DNA of 64,000 nt from Escherichia phage vb_EcoM-VR5, in the sequence record NC_028881.1, one strand, 5' to 3'. The notes under the pieces are model-generated. The model did no database searches. It was given only the letters and a program-made list of their open reading frames with translations, and had not been told where the DNA came from. Positions 2,806 through 62,520 of the stretch are shown one piece after another. Both the position numbers and the translations under genes were made by a program. Within the stretch, counting starts at the first letter, position 1; each line of letters opens with the position of its first letter.

Positions 2806-3011
2806 AATTAGTTGCTTGAATCGACTCTATAAACTTGACCACTGGTTTGGTAAACTTCGCCGTCCCACGTTTCAACTGTGATAGTAACGTACTCTGCAAA
2901 AAGAGGACGTGTATCTGTCCAGAGATAACCATATTCACCTGTGACGAGCGTAACCCAGTACTTTCTCATAAAGTCTCCTTTTATACGGCACTCATGTACC
3001 GTACGTATTTA

Positions 3012-4829
3012 TTACGACATCCAAGCCTTACGAAGCTGTGGGTCGTTTCCAAGGAGCATTTCGAACTGGTCTTTCCAATCTTCAGGTAATTGGACTACAT
3101 CAAATTTAGGGTCTTGAATCATTCGGCGGTATTCAGCTTTCTCAAGAGAACCGAGACCTTTGATATAACGAATAGAATGTTTAGGCAACTTATCCTTAGC
3201 TTCATTATAAGACGGAACATCATAGAACCATTCCTGTTCTTTACCAACCTGCGCAATAATTACCGGAGTTTTACAGAAACGAATTCGTCCCTGTTCGAAC
3301 AATTCAGGCCATTGGCTAAAGAAGGCTAATAACGAAGGATAAATCGAACCAGTACCATCCACATCAGCGTCAGTCATGATAGCGATATTATGATAGTTGG
3401 TTTTATTTGCAGGTTCGCCAATAATTAATCCTGTGATTGCACAGATATCAAATAGTTCCTTGTTCTTCATGATATCAGCAGCAGTCATACCCCAGGTATT
3501 CATAACCTTACCGCGTAATGGATAACCACCTTGGAGGTCTTTATTACGAACTTCAATGAAAGGACCCATTGCAGAATCACCTTCGGTTAAGAACAGAGTC
3601 GTATCAGCATCTTTGCCGTACATATTGGCTTTAATATGCTTATGGACCTTGGCTTTAGAAGCTTTCTTAGCAGCTTTAGTTTCGGCTGCCTTTTCAGCTG
3701 CTAATTTACGTGCTAAAGCGGCTTCGATAATAGGCATAATCAACCCATCAACTTTAAGAATAGCTTGAGCAATTTTCTTAGCATCAATTTGGATATGATT
3801 ACGAATCTCGCCAAATGGAGAGGTCAAACGTTCTTTAGTCTGGGAATCAAAACGCATATTGCTCATATCACGAATGAACATAACCATAGTAAGGCATTCT
3901 TTAACACGGGCCTTGGTTACTTCGATTCCACGATATTTCTTTTTAATACCTGGCAGAAGGTGCTCACAAATATCATCGAATACACATTCAACATGGTGGC
4001 CGCCATTCTTAGTATGGATATTGTTTACATACGTCAGTTGACGGAACCCGTCCGGAGAAGGAGTAAATGCCATCGAAACGTTATCAGTTTCTTGGATTAC
4101 AAAGTCTTCACCAAATTGCTTAGCATACTTTTTAAAGTTACCATCTACTTTTTTACCGTTAAAAGTAAATTGGATATCCGGATAAATTACGGCCAGTGTT
4201 TGAAGTCGGTCTAATGTAATATCCAGATAAATTTGTGACAGACTATTTTCTTCAAAATGATTAAAGTCTGGGGTGAATACAACCGAAGTACCTTTACCTT
4301 TAGATTTCTTGGTAGACCAACCTTTGTTTTCCATTCCATTGGAACAGTTAACTGTAATCTCATTCTCGCCATCAGAGGTGATGCCTGTGAACAAAACAGA
4401 GAAGATATTAGTTAAACTACTACCGACACCATTCATGCCGCCTGTCTTACGCTCTGCGTCATCTCCAAAGTTACCACCAGCCTTTGGAATAGTCCACGCA
4501 GCTACAGGGCCCGGAATCTGTTCACCGTTTTGATCGGTAACCATTGCTTGAGGAATACCACGGCCATTATCAGAAACTGAAACCTGGTTATTCTTAATTT
4601 GGACATCAATTTTATTTGCGAATTTAAAGCTTGTACGAATAGCTTCATCCACAGAGTTATCGATGATTTCGTCAATCAGTTTTACCAGCCCAGGAACATA
4701 GTTGACCTGAGTAAAATTACCGAACAGAAAACGTCCGTGAGCTTCATTAGCACTTGAACCGATATACATCCCACTACGTTTTTTGATATGTTCAATGTCG
4801 GACAGTACTTTAATTTCATTCTTAATCAT
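3012..4829 (-). CDS. 39: DNA topoisomerase II large subunit (GyrB-like; fused gene 39+60 form)
   Basis: 605-aa ORF; GHKL ATPase and TOPRIM-type motifs; RBS GAGGAAA; length fits fused 39/60 as in phages lacking the gene 60 bypass. Confidence 0.9.
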   Translation of the reverse strand: MIKNEIKVLSDIEHIKKRSGMYIGSSANEAHGRFLFGNFTQVNYVPGLVKLIDEIIDNSVDEAIRTSFKFANKIDVQIKNNQVSVSDNGRGIPQAMVTDQNGEQIPGPVAAWTIPKAGGNFGDDAERKTGGMNGVGSSLTNIFSVLFTGITSDGENEITVNCSNGMENKGWSTKKSKGKGTSVVFTPDFNHFEENSLSQIYLDITLDRLQTLAVIYPDIQFTFNGKKVDGNFKKYAKQFGEDFVIQETDNVSMAFTPSPDGFRQLTYVNNIHTKNGGHHVECVFDDICEHLLPGIKKKYRGIEVTKARVKECLTMVMFIRDMSNMRFDSQTKERLTSPFGEIRNHIQIDAKKIAQAILKVDGLIMPIIEAALARKLAAEKAAETKAAKKASKAKVHKHIKANMYGKDADTTLFLTEGDSAMGPFIEVRNKDLQGGYPLRGKVMNTWGMTAADIMKNKELFDICAITGLIIGEPANKTNYHNIAIMTDADVDGTGSIYPSLLAFFSQWPELFEQGRIRFCKTPVIIAQVGKEQEWFYDVPSYNEAKDKLPKHSIRYIKGLGSLEKAEYRRMIQDPKFDVVQLPEDWKDQFEMLLGNDPQLRKAWMS

Positions 4830-14385: not shown

Positions 14386-14619
14386 TTAAACAATATCAGT
14401 AGGCGTAAACATTGCCTCGTTTTTGGTCTTCCAGTCAGCAGCATCAGTCACTACAGTTGAGTAGGCCGCTACCGCCGAAGGGAAAGTCTGATAATGAGCA
14501 TTAGCAATACGATGTGCATTAGAATAGATTTCAAACGGAACAGAAACCTCGGTACCTTTAACTTCTTTACCTACACCAGCTGCATGCGTGAAGGTTTTAA
14601 TATTAACGAAACCACCCAT
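14386..14619 (-). CDS. soc: small outer capsid protein
   Basis: 77-aa ORF; GFVNIKTF...HYQTFPS..AAYSTV matches my recollection of T4 Soc; TATAAATA late promoter upstream; terminator downstream. Confidence 0.85.
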   Translation of the reverse strand: MGGFVNIKTFTHAAGVGKEVKGTEVSVPFEIYSNAHRIANAHYQTFPSAVAAYSTVVTDAADWKTKNEAMFTPTDIV

Positions 14620-14650
14620 AATAAACTCCTTTGTTGTTTAATTACAGGTG

Positions 14651-14658
14651 TATTTATA
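14651..14658 (-). promoter_or_regulatory. late promoter TATAAATA upstream of soc
   Basis: exact TATAAATA on minus strand about 30 nt before soc ATG. Confidence 0.5.
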
Positions 14659-32424: not shown

Positions 32425-33123
32425 TTAGAACGAGTGGCTTGAGCCTGCTTCCATGGCTAATACATAAGAAGCCTGTGCGCCTTCAAATTTAGCGGCGAAT
32501 CGAGCATCTTGGCCTTCACCGCGCGCCCATAACAACACATGATAATCAGCTGGCATCATTTTCATATTAGTTTTGTTAATGATGAACTTAAAGTCAGGAC
32601 CGTCATGATCGGCTACTACCAAAGAATACAGTGGACGAGTTAATTCTTTATCGTCGACTTGTTTATAACCGTTGATAACAATTTTACCGTCGTCTACGGT
32701 GATTGCAAATGTATCAATACTCAATCCGGAAGATACTCGCATCAGTTGCTGATAATCTTCAGCTTTCAGATCGAAAATAACTTCAGCTACAGGGAACGGG
32801 ATAGCTTTGCTTGGGAATGCGATTGTGCTTGGGTCGGCAATAGGCCACTTAATTGTTGAACGTTGGTCTTTAATAATTAAGGTGGTTTGGTCTTCACTTA
32901 CCGAAACTTCAGCACTTTCTGACACCAAAGACAGAATACTTAAGAAGCCATTCAGGTCATAGATTGCAGCTTCGATATCAAAGGTATCACTTACAGTAGC
33001 TTCACCATAACTTGCACCGGTAACAGATCGAGTCAGAATGGTGTTGCCAGGTTTAAGCATAATGCCAGGGTTAATACCGGAGAAGTTTTTAAGAATGTTA
33101 AGAGTATCTTTAGAGAATTTCAT
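32425..33123 (-). CDS. 45: sliding clamp (gp45)
   Basis: 232-aa ORF; N-terminus similar to recalled T4 gp45. Confidence 0.88.
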   Translation of the reverse strand: MKFSKDTLNILKNFSGINPGIMLKPGNTILTRSVTGASYGEATVSDTFDIEAAIYDLNGFLSILSLVSESAEVSVSEDQTTLIIKDQRSTIKWPIADPSTIAFPSKAIPFPVAEVIFDLKAEDYQQLMRVSSGLSIDTFAITVDDGKIVINGYKQVDDKELTRPLYSLVVADHDGPDFKFIINKTNMKMMPADYHVLLWARGEGQDARFAAKFEGAQASYVLAMEAGSSHSF

Positions 33124-37688: not shown

Positions 37689-37952
37689 TTAATCCTTGTA
37701 ATTCAATTTTATATAAAAATCTTCGTCAGTAACGTGATAGTTATAAGTTAATGTTCCTTTTTCAGTTTTAATTTCTACCGAATCGGGGTGTTTTGGGTCT
37801 ATTACAATAGGAAGTTTGGCAATATCCTTAAGATACATTTTAAGAACATAAGGAATTGCCGAATACTCTCCATCTACTTCTTCTAAAAGGCCTACCAGGT
37901 TAATCTTGAGTTCCATATAAAAAATCCAGCTCACCAACTTTAGATTCAGCAC
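37689..37952 (-). CDS. hypothetical protein (87 aa)
   Basis: ORF. Confidence 0.5.
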
Positions 37953-38457
37953 TCTTATCAGACCCTGGCGCTTTAACTAAAGAGGTTTCATACTGAGTCA
38001 TTTTGTCGTAAATATCCTGGATAAAAGTTTCATCTGCGATACCTACCATGTCGTCGTCATTAGCGTCATAAACGTTATGGACGAAGTAGCTATATTTCTT
38101 TGCCATTTCTTTACGTTCTTTCTTGATACGCTGAACAAAGGCATTAAAACAAGCCATAGTGATATATGCATGTGGGTTGTCGTATTTTGTTTCGTCGAAG
38201 TTGTGAAGACCTTTAATAGAAGCTTCGATTCCATCAGCAATCATTTCTTGCTTCCAGGATTGGGTATATCCGGAGAAGTTAAAACGTTTACTTAGGCCTT
38301 CAGCAATGAGCATAATAGCCAAGCCGATAACGTCGTTCTGACGAACTATTTTATTAGGGTCGGTATTTTCTCGGAGCTCTGTTTTCCACTGGGTAATGGC
38401 TTTCAGAAGCTCCTTATTATTTACATAGTTATTTTTAGTCAGTTTAATTTCGGTCAT
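37900..38457 (-). CDS. 55: late sigma factor gp55
   Basis: 185-aa ORF; long stretches match my recollection of T4 gp55 ([44 protein letters not shown]). Confidence 0.9.
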
Positions 38458-39382: not shown

Positions 39383-39453
39383 AATAATTTCCTCAGTTTA
39401 TTAAAATTTATAATCCGTAGGACCATTATACTCTGGTCCCAAGAGTTTGTAAA

Positions 39454-41260: not shown

Positions 41261-41385
41261 AGGATAACCCAGGTATTATTGACAACAAATAACCATAGAG
41301 CTGGATACTCTACACCCATACGACGGATAATATCATTCATAGCTTCAGTTAGAGCATAGAACGTGTAACCATAAAAATTAATCAT
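41257..41385 (-). CDS. small hypothetical protein (42 aa)
   Basis: hand-translated MINFYGYTFYALTEAMNDIIRRMGVEYP...; ATGA overlaps with gene 49 stop and next ORF start. Confidence 0.35.
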   Translation of the reverse strand: MINFYGYTFYALTEAMNDIIRRMGVEYPALWLFVVNNTWVIL

Positions 41386-41855
41386 TTAAGCGATTTCCTC
41401 AGTTGTTTTTTAAATGAATCAACCATTTGTTTCTTAGTGTCGGATTCATTATAAGTCATTCCATGTGAAAGCATTTCAGCAATCATTTCTTCCTTACCTA
41501 ATCTACTGAACTCTTTGGTTTTATCAGGAACGAAATTCGGGTGGATATTATTTTCAGTGTAATCGGTTTTCAGATAGACTAGCAAATTCTCTAACCATTC
41601 GAGGTAGTCAACGTTTTGACCTTTCAAACCAGAACGGTTGAACTTATGCTTCATTTGTCCCTCTGCAGCATTGCACAGGTTACATAGTAAACCACGAACC
41701 TTACCAGCTTTTGGCCCGTTCAATTCATGGTCGTGGTCAAGGTGGTTACTTTGAACATCAGGGTTTAATTCACGTTTACAAATCAAACACTTACCATCCT
41801 GTGCATCATAAAGTTTTTGTTTTTCTTCTTTGTATAATTTGCCAGTCAACAACAT
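41382..41855 (-). CDS. 49: endonuclease VII (Holliday junction resolvase, gp49)
   Basis: 157-aa ORF near-identical to recalled T4 endo VII (MLLTGKLYKEEKQK...CLIC...HLDHDH). Confidence 0.92.
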   Translation of the reverse strand: MLLTGKLYKEEKQKLYDAQDGKCLICKRELNPDVQSNHLDHDHELNGPKAGKVRGLLCNLCNAAEGQMKHKFNRSGLKGQNVDYLEWLENLLVYLKTDYTENNIHPNFVPDKTKEFSRLGKEEMIAEMLSHGMTYNESDTKKQMVDSFKKQLRKSLK

Positions 41856-41860
41856 AATAA

Positions 41861-41885
41861 ACCCTTACCTGTATTAGATAAGGGT
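41861..41885 (-). promoter_or_regulatory. hairpin overlapping translation initiation region of gene 49
   Basis: accctta-(11 nt)-taagggt stem next to AATAAATA element. Confidence 0.4.
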
Positions 41886-42066
41886 ATTTATTAAATATTA
41901 TAAAACGAGCGATGCAACCGTTTAAATTGTCGAATCATCTTTTTAGTAGGATGAGTATATAATCCTACGCAGGTGACCATAAACCGGTCAGTAGGACTTC
42001 CTTTGATAAGAAGTTTCCAGACCTTACCACCATTTAACTTTTCGGTATAGACTAATACAGTTTTCA

Positions 42067-42240
42067 TTAGAACGCCTTATCAGAAAAGCGAAGTTGAGCT
42101 TCAAGCCAATGGATATAATCAGCCGCGGCAAAAATTAAATCAGATTCTTCATCAGATAACTTACGGGAATCCGACAGCTCGTAAAGAGAATGTTCAATCA
42201 GACGACCTTTATGTCGGCCAACTTCAATTTTGGTACTCAT
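42067..42240 (-). CDS. small hypothetical protein (57 aa)
   Basis: hand-translated ORF with SD ACGGAG; low certainty. Confidence 0.3.
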   Translation of the reverse strand: MSTKIEVGRHKGRLIEHSLYELSDSRKLSDEESDLIFAAADYIHWLEAQLRFSDKAF

Positions 42241-42356
42241 ACCCAAACTCCGTATCGATTAATTCATTGTTTGAAGGTTCATTATACTCTATTTCGGAAT
42301 CGTTGTAAACCGGTTCCTCTGGCTCGGTAGTTTCCCACCGAGCGACATACCATGGC

Positions 42357-44834: not shown

Positions 44835-44871
44835 TAGAAAGATTATACTCCATCCGTCCTTGGATGTAAAC
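44835..44871 (-). promoter_or_regulatory. early promoter (-35 GTTTAC, -10 TATAAT)
   Basis: consensus hexamers 18 nt apart. Confidence 0.5.
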
Positions 44872-58226: not shown

Positions 58227-58643
58227 TTATGCATAAATCGCCTTACTGTAATATTTATACCAGGTAGGGCGTTGTGCAATTTTTTCGTCTAAACGGGCCT
58301 GTGATATAACGATAGAAGCTTCATGGGGGATATAATCACCACGGAATTCCTGAGGAATATCACTAATATCCTGGACTGTAGTATCCTTGATATTAAACCC
58401 ACGTTTTAGACATTCGTCTATAAGCTCAATTTGACGTTTACGTAAGAACTCGAGCTTATCGTAAAAGAATGTAACATGACCTGTGCCAAGGATAAAAGTA
58501 GGACTGATTTTAAAATCACGAACCCGTTTACCATTAGCAACATGCTTACGAACTGCACCAAAAACACGTGGTAATTCACGATATTCGGCCATTAAGTGTT
58601 GGTCAGCCAATTCAGATACTAAAGTAAGGTTGATACGAGTCAT
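58227..58643 (-). CDS. denV: endonuclease V (pyrimidine dimer DNA glycosylase)
   Basis: 138-aa ORF, same length as T4 DenV; N-terminus MTRINLTLV. Confidence 0.88.
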
Positions 58644-59798: not shown

Positions 59799-60293
59799 TT
59801 ATAGATTTTTATACGCGTCCCAAGTGCCAGTTCTAAACGTTGCAATGACTCGCTTAGCTCGGTTGGGGGTCTGTTTGTACCAACGAGATTGCGCTAGGTT
59901 AACTGCGGCCTCATCCCAACGTTTTTGTTGGAGCATACGAAGAGAGTTAGTAAATCCTGCTACACCAGCTTCACCCATTTGGAAGACCATATTAATTAGT
60001 GCGCAACGACGAACTTCGTCAAGCACATCATAAACAGGTTTCAATTTAGGATTACGCAAAATAGCCCTACGAGCATTTTCCACTGAACGATTAAAGAGTT
60101 GTTCTGCTTCAGTCATTGTAATACGACCATTACAAACTCGACCCATAAGTTTATCAAGTTCAGCACGAGCAACATCTTTAGAAGGATTCTTGGTTATCAA
60201 TTGGCCGATGCCAATAGTCCAATAACCTTCGGTGTCTTTATAAAGATTTAAATCAAGACCTTCGTCTTGACGTAACATATCAAAAATATCCAT
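59799..60293 (-). CDS. e: lysozyme (endolysin, T4 e)
   Basis: 164-aa ORF; catalytic-region motifs of T4 lysozyme ([11 protein letters not shown], ...[10 protein letters not shown]...[10 protein letters not shown]). Confidence 0.92.
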
Positions 60294-60319
60294 AATACCT
60301 CCTGAGTATAGGAGGTATT
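60294..60319 (-). promoter_or_regulatory. SD-sequestering hairpin upstream of lysozyme gene e
   Basis: aatacctcc-(8 nt)-ggaggtatt perfect 9-bp stem containing GGAGG immediately before ATG; AATAAATA late-promoter-like element abuts it. Confidence 0.55.
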
Positions 60320-60327
60320 TATTATTC

Positions 60328-60777
60328 TTAGAACATTGAGCTCAGAACCTTATACATCGACTGGCCCATGACATATTCCCATTGTGGACGTTTAATCAAG
60401 GCGAAAGCATCGAACTCAGGAATACTACGACCGTCAGGGAACGTATGATAAGCCGTACATTTGCAATTCTTGAACTGCTCGTGTTCCACAGGCACAGTAT
60501 ATAAGAACAGGTGTAGATTCTTATTGCTGGAATATTTGAACTCACCTAGGTCTTTCAGGAACGCAGGGTCATATGCAGTGAATCCAATCTCTTCTTCGGT
60601 TTCACGCATAGCAGCTTGGATAGGCTCTTCACCTGATTCAACATGACCTTTAGGAATGTCCCATTTATGACGCATATTCTCTGGATTACGAGAACCTGTT
60701 ACACGACCCATGACTAGTTCTTTATCAACGGTCATGAACAAAATACCAGCGGATAATTCTTTAACTTTCTTACTCAT
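60328..60777 (-). CDS. nudE: Nudix hydrolase (NudE-like); start uncertain
   Basis: Nudix box [23 protein letters not shown]; start set at MSKKVKE. Confidence 0.65.
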
Positions 60778-62295: not shown

Positions 62296-62520
62296 TTACT
62301 TTTTATTGAAAAAGTACATTTTACCTTTAGGAGATAAAGATACACGAAGCGCGTTACCGATACCAACTGAACATTTAACCAGGTCAGCAGATTTCAATTC
62401 ACCAAACGCTTGACGAAGGTCACCATCACGAGTGTTAACCATCAGGCATTTAGCACCAGCTGCACGAACTTCGTTTAACATGTTGATTGCGTTAGTAGAA
62501 AGTTTCATTTTATTCTCCAT
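62296..62520 (-). CDS. hypothetical protein (74 aa)
   Basis: ORF downstream of promoter motif. Confidence 0.45.
   Translation of the reverse strand: MENKMKLSTNAINMLNEVRAAGAKCLMVNTRDGDLRQAFGELKSADLVKCSVGIGNALRVSLSPKGKMYFFNKK

Follow-up and report, generated by a model that had tools for sequence, protein, structure and literature searches.

Probable T4-type translational switches, with late-promoter-like boxes in start-site hairpins, precede lysozyme gene e and gene 49 of a JS98-like coliphage

The DNA analyzed here, a stretch of 64,000 nucleotides from Escherichia phage vb_EcoM-VR5 (NC_028881.1; hereafter the window), derives from a T4-type, JS98-like phage (Dhakavirus), for which the nearest record is Escherichia phage ESCO10 (OM386655.1; L128 in our set), with ~94% identity across the e region. 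Crude gene calling over the whole window places 113 of 121 genes on the minus strand, including all of the genes and leaders described below. Gene e (59799..60293) encodes a T4-type lysozyme of 164 aa (PF00959, Phage_lysozyme) with 78.7% identity to the lysozyme of a T4 record, and is preceded by nudE (60328..60777), a NUDIX hydrolase gene (PF00293) whose transcripts would read into e and whose stop codon lies 34 nt before the e AUG; a NUDIX gene upstream of e is an arrangement shared with T4. In the ESCO10 record, the lysozyme and NUDIX genes (1511-2489) are both labeled "baseplate subunit," apparently a misannotation. Gene 49 (41382..41855) encodes endonuclease VII (157 aa; PF02945 and PF09124) and follows a 58-aa ORF (DUF7279; 41891..42067). 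The late transcription machinery is represented within the window by both gene 55 (37903..38457), the late sigma factor for boxes of the TATAAATA type (100% identity to JS98 gp55 and 78% to T4 gp55, near-identical to the latter at residues 37-130), and gene 45 (32428..33123), the sliding clamp that activates late transcription (99% identity to JS98 gp45). The gene for the gp33 coactivator presumably lies outside the window.

The intergenic RNA upstream of e (minus strand) reads uaaGAAUAAUAAAUACCUCCUAUACUCAGGAGGUAUUAUG and folds into a hairpin with a 10-bp stem (60294..60319; dG -14.1 kcal/mol, z -3.6). Its 5' arm, AAUACCUCC(U), or AAUACCUCCU when written in full (60319..60310), is separated by a 6-nt loop (60309..60304) from the 3' arm, (A)GGAGGUAUU, in full AGGAGGUAUU (60303..60294), which contains the Shine-Dalgarno sequence (SD) GGAGG (60302..60298) just ahead of the e AUG (60293..60291). 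A late-promoter-like octamer, AATAAATA (60316..60323), differs from the T4 TATAAATA box in having A at -13; its final 4 nt double as the start of the 5' arm, such that the AAUA/UAUU part of the stem is drawn from the box and from the spacer (UAUU) between SD and AUG. In a simple consensus scan, early-promoter matches upstream of e were weak (9 to 10 of 12 positions) and one weak terminator-like site was found at 62354, while the simple scan for sense-strand terminator-like sites between nudE and e returned none.

The gene 49 leader RNA (minus strand), AAUAAAUACCCUUAUCUAAUACAGGUAAGGGUUUAUUAUG, folds into an inner stem enclosed by an outer helix (41855..41893; dG -14.7 kcal/mol, z -3.56). The inner stem pairs 41885..41876 with 41870..41861 over 10 bp (ACCCUUAUCU/AGGUAAGGGU) around a loop at 41875..41871, and the outer helix pairs 41893..41888 with 41860..41855 over 6 bp, extending to the A of the AUG, so that the structure sequesters both the SD (AAGGG) and the first base of the start codon. 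The octamer AATAAATA is again present (41885..41892), an identical box occupying the same place in T4, and it is overlapped by the UAA stop codon of the upstream ORF (41893..41891), which lies 5 nt from the inner stem. An early-type promoter at 42309..42281 (minus strand) scores 11 of 12, and the hairpin itself is the only terminator-like site that the scan found between this promoter and the gene. Two further elements lie nearby. A strong stem, GCUCGGUGG/CUACCGAGC (-21 kcal/mol, ~42310-42350, minus strand), just upstream of the 42309 promoter, is probably a terminator. The late box of gene 49 is preceded, at a distance of 5 nt, by a sigma-70-like element (TTTAAA-18-TATAAT; 41897-41926, minus strand) that falls near the 3' end of the coding sequence of the upstream ORF and may be fortuitous; RNA initiated from this element would carry the whole inner hairpin.

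These structures agree closely with what an earlier note, made from the letters of the sequence, had described. The Pfam matches (Phage_lysozyme and Endonuclease VII) and the T4-like NUDIX neighbor of e bear out the identities it gave to the two genes; the perfect 9-bp stem that it drew between the e SD and an upstream complement is present at 60319..60294, lengthened by a tenth U-A pair; and its coordinates for the gene 49 hairpin (41861-41885) were right, with 10 inner base pairs where 7 had been named and an outer 6-bp helix in addition. The folding energies that it proposed as a check favor both hairpins. Its statement that an octamer abuts the e stem stands as to the presence of the box (60323..60316) and has to be corrected as to its position, which is one of overlap with the arm rather than mere abutment.

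With the boxes taken as spanning positions -13 to -6, late transcription of e is predicted to start at ~60310 +/- 2 nt (60308..60312), at the 3' end of the 5' arm, and that of gene 49 at ~41879 (41877..41881), inside the 5' arm. Because each 5' arm begins inside its AATAAATA box, a late start would remove the arm: the predicted +1 strips 9 of the 10 stem pairs from the e leader and 11 of 15 pairs from that of gene 49, leaving leaders of 17 and 24 nt, respectively. We modeled early RNA as read-through and late RNA as beginning at the predicted +1 +/- 2 nt. Over the two genes, the modeled probability that the SD is unpaired was 0.000 to 0.001 in early RNA (0.000 for e) versus 0.38 to 0.63 in late RNA, and the modeled cost of opening positions -15 to +6 was 14.6 to 20.9 kcal/mol in early versus 3.5 to 5.1 kcal/mol in late RNA (late e RNA, 3.8 to 5.1; gene 49, from ~20 down to 3.5 to 4.9). 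Sequestration of the SD or start in read-through RNA from both genes is thereby predicted by the folding models.

Both hairpins are exceptional within the window. None of 200 dinucleotide shuffles folded as stably as either hairpin (z = -3.6 each); the local folding energies of e and gene 49 (-15.0 and -15.6) are the two lowest among the 121 crudely called genes (median, -6.4), and gene 49 ranks first among them for the least accessible start region. The octamers TATAAATA and AATAAATA show no enrichment in the window (4 of each versus 7 to 9 expected) and if anything are depleted, so that the case rests on the placement of the boxes, not on their number. Since the ATAAATA heptamer occurs only 9 times in 64 kb, counting both strands, it is very unlikely that two boxes would fall by chance exactly on the 5' arms of both hairpins, an event to which we assign, as a rough estimate of our own, a probability of ~1e-6. 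A search with the models of Rfam 15 at the gathering threshold gave no match anywhere in the window.

The arrangement is that of a well-studied system. In T4, e, soc, 49, and I-TevI carry inhibitory helices at their start sites with late promoters inside them (Uzan and Miller, PMC3014915). Early read-through RNA of e forms such a structure and is translated ~100-fold less, an effect that the T4 experiments attribute to blocked 30S binding, and similar leaders have been predicted in close T4-type relatives (PMC3014915). The e hairpin with its internal late promoters goes back to McPheeters 1986, as summarized in PMC3014915, and the gene 49 leader to Barth et al. 1988, as cited in PMC2988021, gene 49 also being listed in PMC3014915. 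The same late-promoter-in-hairpin logic applies to homing endonuclease genes (Edgell et al., PMC2988022). As is proposed for e and gene 49 of the window, soc, I-TevI, I-TevII, I-TevIII, segB, and Aeh1 mobE combine a late gene in an early or middle unit, a buried start, and an internal late start (PMC3014915, PMC2988022), with the differences that the stem of soc covers the AUG rather than the SD, unlike in e, and that the homing endonuclease genes add operator-type autorepression to the hairpin logic (the class treated in PMC2988022). As to the boxes, 32 of 50 T4 late sites are perfect and 9 of 50 have A at -13 (Geiduschek and Kassavetis, PMC2988020), which makes AATAAATA the commonest variant of the T4 late box; the box spans -13 to -6, shows poor conservation of T(-13), and takes the form CTAAATA in Aeh1 (PMC1524935). 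Judged by their sequence, the AATAAATA boxes of e and gene 49 are candidate T4-type late promoters.

Set beside the T4 leader, TATAAATACCTTCTATAAATACTTAGGAGGTATTATG, the e leader of the window has the same design in an orthologous gene and position, with nudE upstream; the start region GGAGGUAUUAUG is common to both, and in both the anti-SD arm follows directly after the late box. The differences are of detail: the T4 stem contains a G-U pair (CCUUC), whereas that of the window is perfect (CCUCC), the stem energies are -13.3 and -14.1 kcal/mol, and the loops are 8 and 6 nt long, respectively. Where T4 carries one consensus TATAAATA box in the 5' arm and another in the loop, the window has a single box with A at -13. 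The second T4 promoter, in the loop, has decayed here to TATACTCA, and late expression of e would therefore rest on one variant box. The gene 49 leaders are closer still. That of T4, AATAAATACCCTTATCTATTTAAGGTAAGGGTTTATTATG, has the identical AATAAATA box, the same 10-bp inner stem (ACCCUUAUCU/AGGUAAGGGU), and the same UUUAUUAUG tail, and the loop bases alone differ. Upstream, T4 carries pin, with a stop codon 7 nt further from the stem, whereas the window carries the 58-aa ORF, with its stop on the box. The two phages also differ within the gene: codon 53 is GTT in the window (41697-41699, minus strand), whereas T4 has there an internal GTG start for a nested shorter product (NC_000866 annotation). 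Two nested T4 gene 49 proteins are named in the title of Barth 1988, cited in PMC2988021. With GTG replaced by GTT, the nested short product is probably not made in this phage. The short protein of T4 is reportedly made from early RNA, which would imply read-through.

We compared these leaders with those of relatives from IMG/VR that carry the octamer (12 distinct leaders for e and 31 for gene 49). A stem covering the SD was found in 12 of 12 e leaders and 31 of 31 gene 49 leaders, in each case beginning within or just after a NATAAATA or CTAAATA box, the latter variant marking an Aeh1-like clade. Across these leaders, the predicted +1 deletes ~8 of 10 to 12 pairs, and the folding energy rises from ~-13 to between -1 and -2 kcal/mol. 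At the site orthologous to the e octamer, T4, JS98, and IME341-type phages have TATAAATA, and others have AATAAATA or GATAAATA; the ESCO10 leader matches that of the window at every base of the box, hairpin, and start codon.

The gene 49 helix shows strong compensatory covariation and is under selection. CG, GC, AU, and UA alternatives occur at 4 of 9 pairs, 89.6% of alignment cells are paired versus ~40% in slid registers, and 51 cells are doubly changed versus 16.4 expected, a value reached by none of 500 shuffles. This comparative support is cleaner than any in the reviews that we consulted. Covariation in the e stem, on a MAFFT alignment, was not significant (one compensatory cell), and the test is uninformative, because the stem is an SD/anti-SD duplex that is not free to vary and because MAFFT misregisters the CUCC clades, whose register differs by one base from that of the CCUCC clades. 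The e stem is nonetheless kept where its bases change, as clades without the outer AAUA/UAUU pairs have acquired others, UAUC/GAUA or UAUA/UAUA, next to the loop.

SD-sequestering stems of 9 to 14 bp likewise accompany more distant T4-type lysozyme genes, in Cronobacter phage S13 (L020, 1140-1200) and in the contigs L031 and L033 to L036 (~1140-1203), where a CTAAATA, TTAAATA, or CATAAATA box lies in the 5' arm or loop. L031 and L034 are uncharacterized contigs whose best protein matches are T4-type lysozymes at no more than 56% identity; a nucleotide search with L031 gave no match.

A third instance of the design lies within the window, in the leader of soc (14613..14658; the gene, PF16855, spans 14386..14619 on the minus strand). 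There, TATAAATA (14658..14651) is followed by ACACCUGUAAU, which pairs across with AUUAUGGGUG (14650..14641 with 14622..14613) in a stem that covers the AUG (14619..14617), and the modeled opening cost is 14.3 kcal/mol for early versus ~5 kcal/mol for late RNA. The arrangement is kept in 13 relatives, with compensatory changes in one of them (L139). Other sites in the window share elements of the design. A AATAAATA octamer at 3013..3006 (minus strand) is followed by an 8-bp hairpin, UACGGUAC/GUGCCGUA (region 2965-3013), upstream of the SD of a 53-aa ORF, which it leaves uncovered; the predicted late start falls inside its 5' arm. A consensus TATAAATA at 58252-58259 (minus strand) has no ORF following it and lies within the 3' end of a denV-like ORF (58227..58643), where it forms part of codons for WYKYY; it may have arisen by chance or may serve the next gene as a late promoter. 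Spacer inverted repeats are found in 2 of 9 early-type promoters (CATCC..GGATG and ACTCT..AGAGT, in promoters at 44842-44870 and 39425-39453, minus strand).

Taken together, we consider that the e and gene 49 leaders are very probably orthologues, in a JS98-like phage, of the T4 translational switches in which a late promoter lies inside a hairpin. In the proposed mechanism, both genes would lie inside same-strand early or middle transcription units, and read-through RNA would carry the full inverted repeat, folding into a stem of ~-14 kcal/mol that would pair the SD (and, in gene 49, also the first AUG base) with its upstream complement and keep the 30S subunit from binding. Once replication has begun, polymerase modified by gp55, gp33, and gp45 would recognize the (T/A)ATAAATA box at the start of the 5' arm and initiate ~6 nt downstream of it, yielding RNA with most of the 5' arm missing, an open start, and late synthesis of the protein. 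The activity of the AATAAATA boxes, the exact 5' ends, and the silence of early RNA are inferred here from the T4 literature. The earlier note had likewise matched both leaders to the T4 mechanism, an interpretation that gains support from their orthology to the experimentally characterized T4 leaders (PMC3014915, PMC2988022), and it had placed the late starts inside the hairpins, where both predicted +1 positions (~60310 and ~41879) indeed fall, each removing the anti-SD arm. The parallel that it saw with inverted repeats at early promoters finds no support, as these repeats are heterogeneous, being either terminator-like stems or promoter-spacer repeats, and involve no SD.

Four other explanations deserve consideration. 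For gene 49, the hairpin might mainly be a translational-coupling device, with gp49 made early and in proportion to translation of the upstream 58-aa ORF. The UAA of that ORF falls on the octamer, 5 nt from the inner stem, and when a ribosome terminating there was modeled with a footprint reaching +12 or +15, the probability that the gene 49 SD is unpaired rose from 0.001 to 0.47 to 0.61; the replacement of the internal T4 GTG start by GTT at codon 53 is a further point in its favor. This explanation is built on modeling, however, and the same stem and box occur in T4 with the upstream stop 7 nt further off. The position of the box relative to the arm, conserved in 31 leaders, is explained by a promoter switch instead, and under the same model termination on nudE leaves the e hairpin shut (SD unpaired, 0.002 at +12). 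We regard coupling as the main function of the gene 49 hairpin as quite unlikely. Because a ribosome ending on the upstream ORF is modeled to open the stem, silencing of early gene 49 RNA may nevertheless be leaky rather than complete in this phage.

A second explanation, that the hairpins are mainly transcription terminators or attenuators rather than translational blocks, would have the gene 49 stem and its UUAUUAUGUU tract halt early sense transcription and the e repeat with TATTATTCTT halt antisense transcription on the plus strand, and a simple scan does score the gene 49 stem (sense strand) and the e repeat (plus strand) as terminator-like. Yet such sites are no commoner in the window than in shuffled sequence (2 versus 2.7 to 3.2, both scans), each stem has only 4 G-C pairs, and the T-rich tail of the e repeat is just the late box read on the complementary strand, in a place where no plus-strand gene ends. 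The U-tract directly after the gene 49 stem is confined to T4/JS98-type leaders, with most other clades going from the stem into AUG UUA UUG, whereas SD sequestration and the box are what all clades keep; the shorter nested gene 49 product annotated in NC_000866 also argues against termination ahead of the gene. Termination as the main role is in our judgment very unlikely. An intrinsic (Rho-independent) terminator as the main function was rejected for these hairpins, which may have a minor or secondary role of this kind at most.

It is less credible still that the stems serve mainly in RNA protection or processing, shielding the SD GGAG from RegB or RNase E or stabilizing upstream 3' ends, with translational control secondary. 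RegB does cut GGAG in early intergenic regions (PMC3014915), and the GGAGG of e is fully paired in read-through RNA, but the gene 49 SD of the window has no GGAG, the locking of the late box to the 5' arm in every relative would be left unexplained, and the T4 experiments point to blocked 30S binding as the source of the effect (PMC3014915). We can give next to no credence to a functionless by-product of sequence constraints, in which an A/T-rich spacer (UAUU) happens to complement the AAUA of the box beside a chance CCUCC: part of the e stem is indeed made of box and spacer, with almost no compensatory change, but no shuffle of 200 folds as well, the two folds rank first and second among 121 genes, other clades replace lost AAUA/UAUU pairs with UAUC/GAUA or UAUA/UAUA and keep the stem, the gene 49 helix covaries strongly, and soc is of the same design.

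Beyond the switch as known from T4, a bolder joint reading would hold that the gene 49 switch has been rewired in the Dhakavirus lineage and that the device is commoner, or has evolved on more occasions, than the T-even literature shows. We consider this doubtful. If true, the rewiring would consist in the loss of the nested T4 GTG start (now GTT) and a shift of the upstream stop codon, which now overlaps the late box at 5 nt from the stem, and early endonuclease VII would be obtained through termination-coupled melting of the hairpin, with a full-length early product replacing the nested short one. A wider distribution or more frequent origin of the device is hinted at by the occurrence of a box in the 5' arm in Cronobacter phage S13 and the contigs L031 and L033 to L036.

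The mechanism itself is already known, having been worked out in T4 during the 1980s and already predicted for close relatives as well, and hairpin switches of this kind are ordinary for a T4-type genome, so the value of the present finding lies mainly in annotation. It supplies the probable regulatory signals for e, 49, and soc, three late genes embedded in what is otherwise an early region of this therapeutic-type coliphage, and for these genes transcript abundance should not be taken as the timing of the protein.
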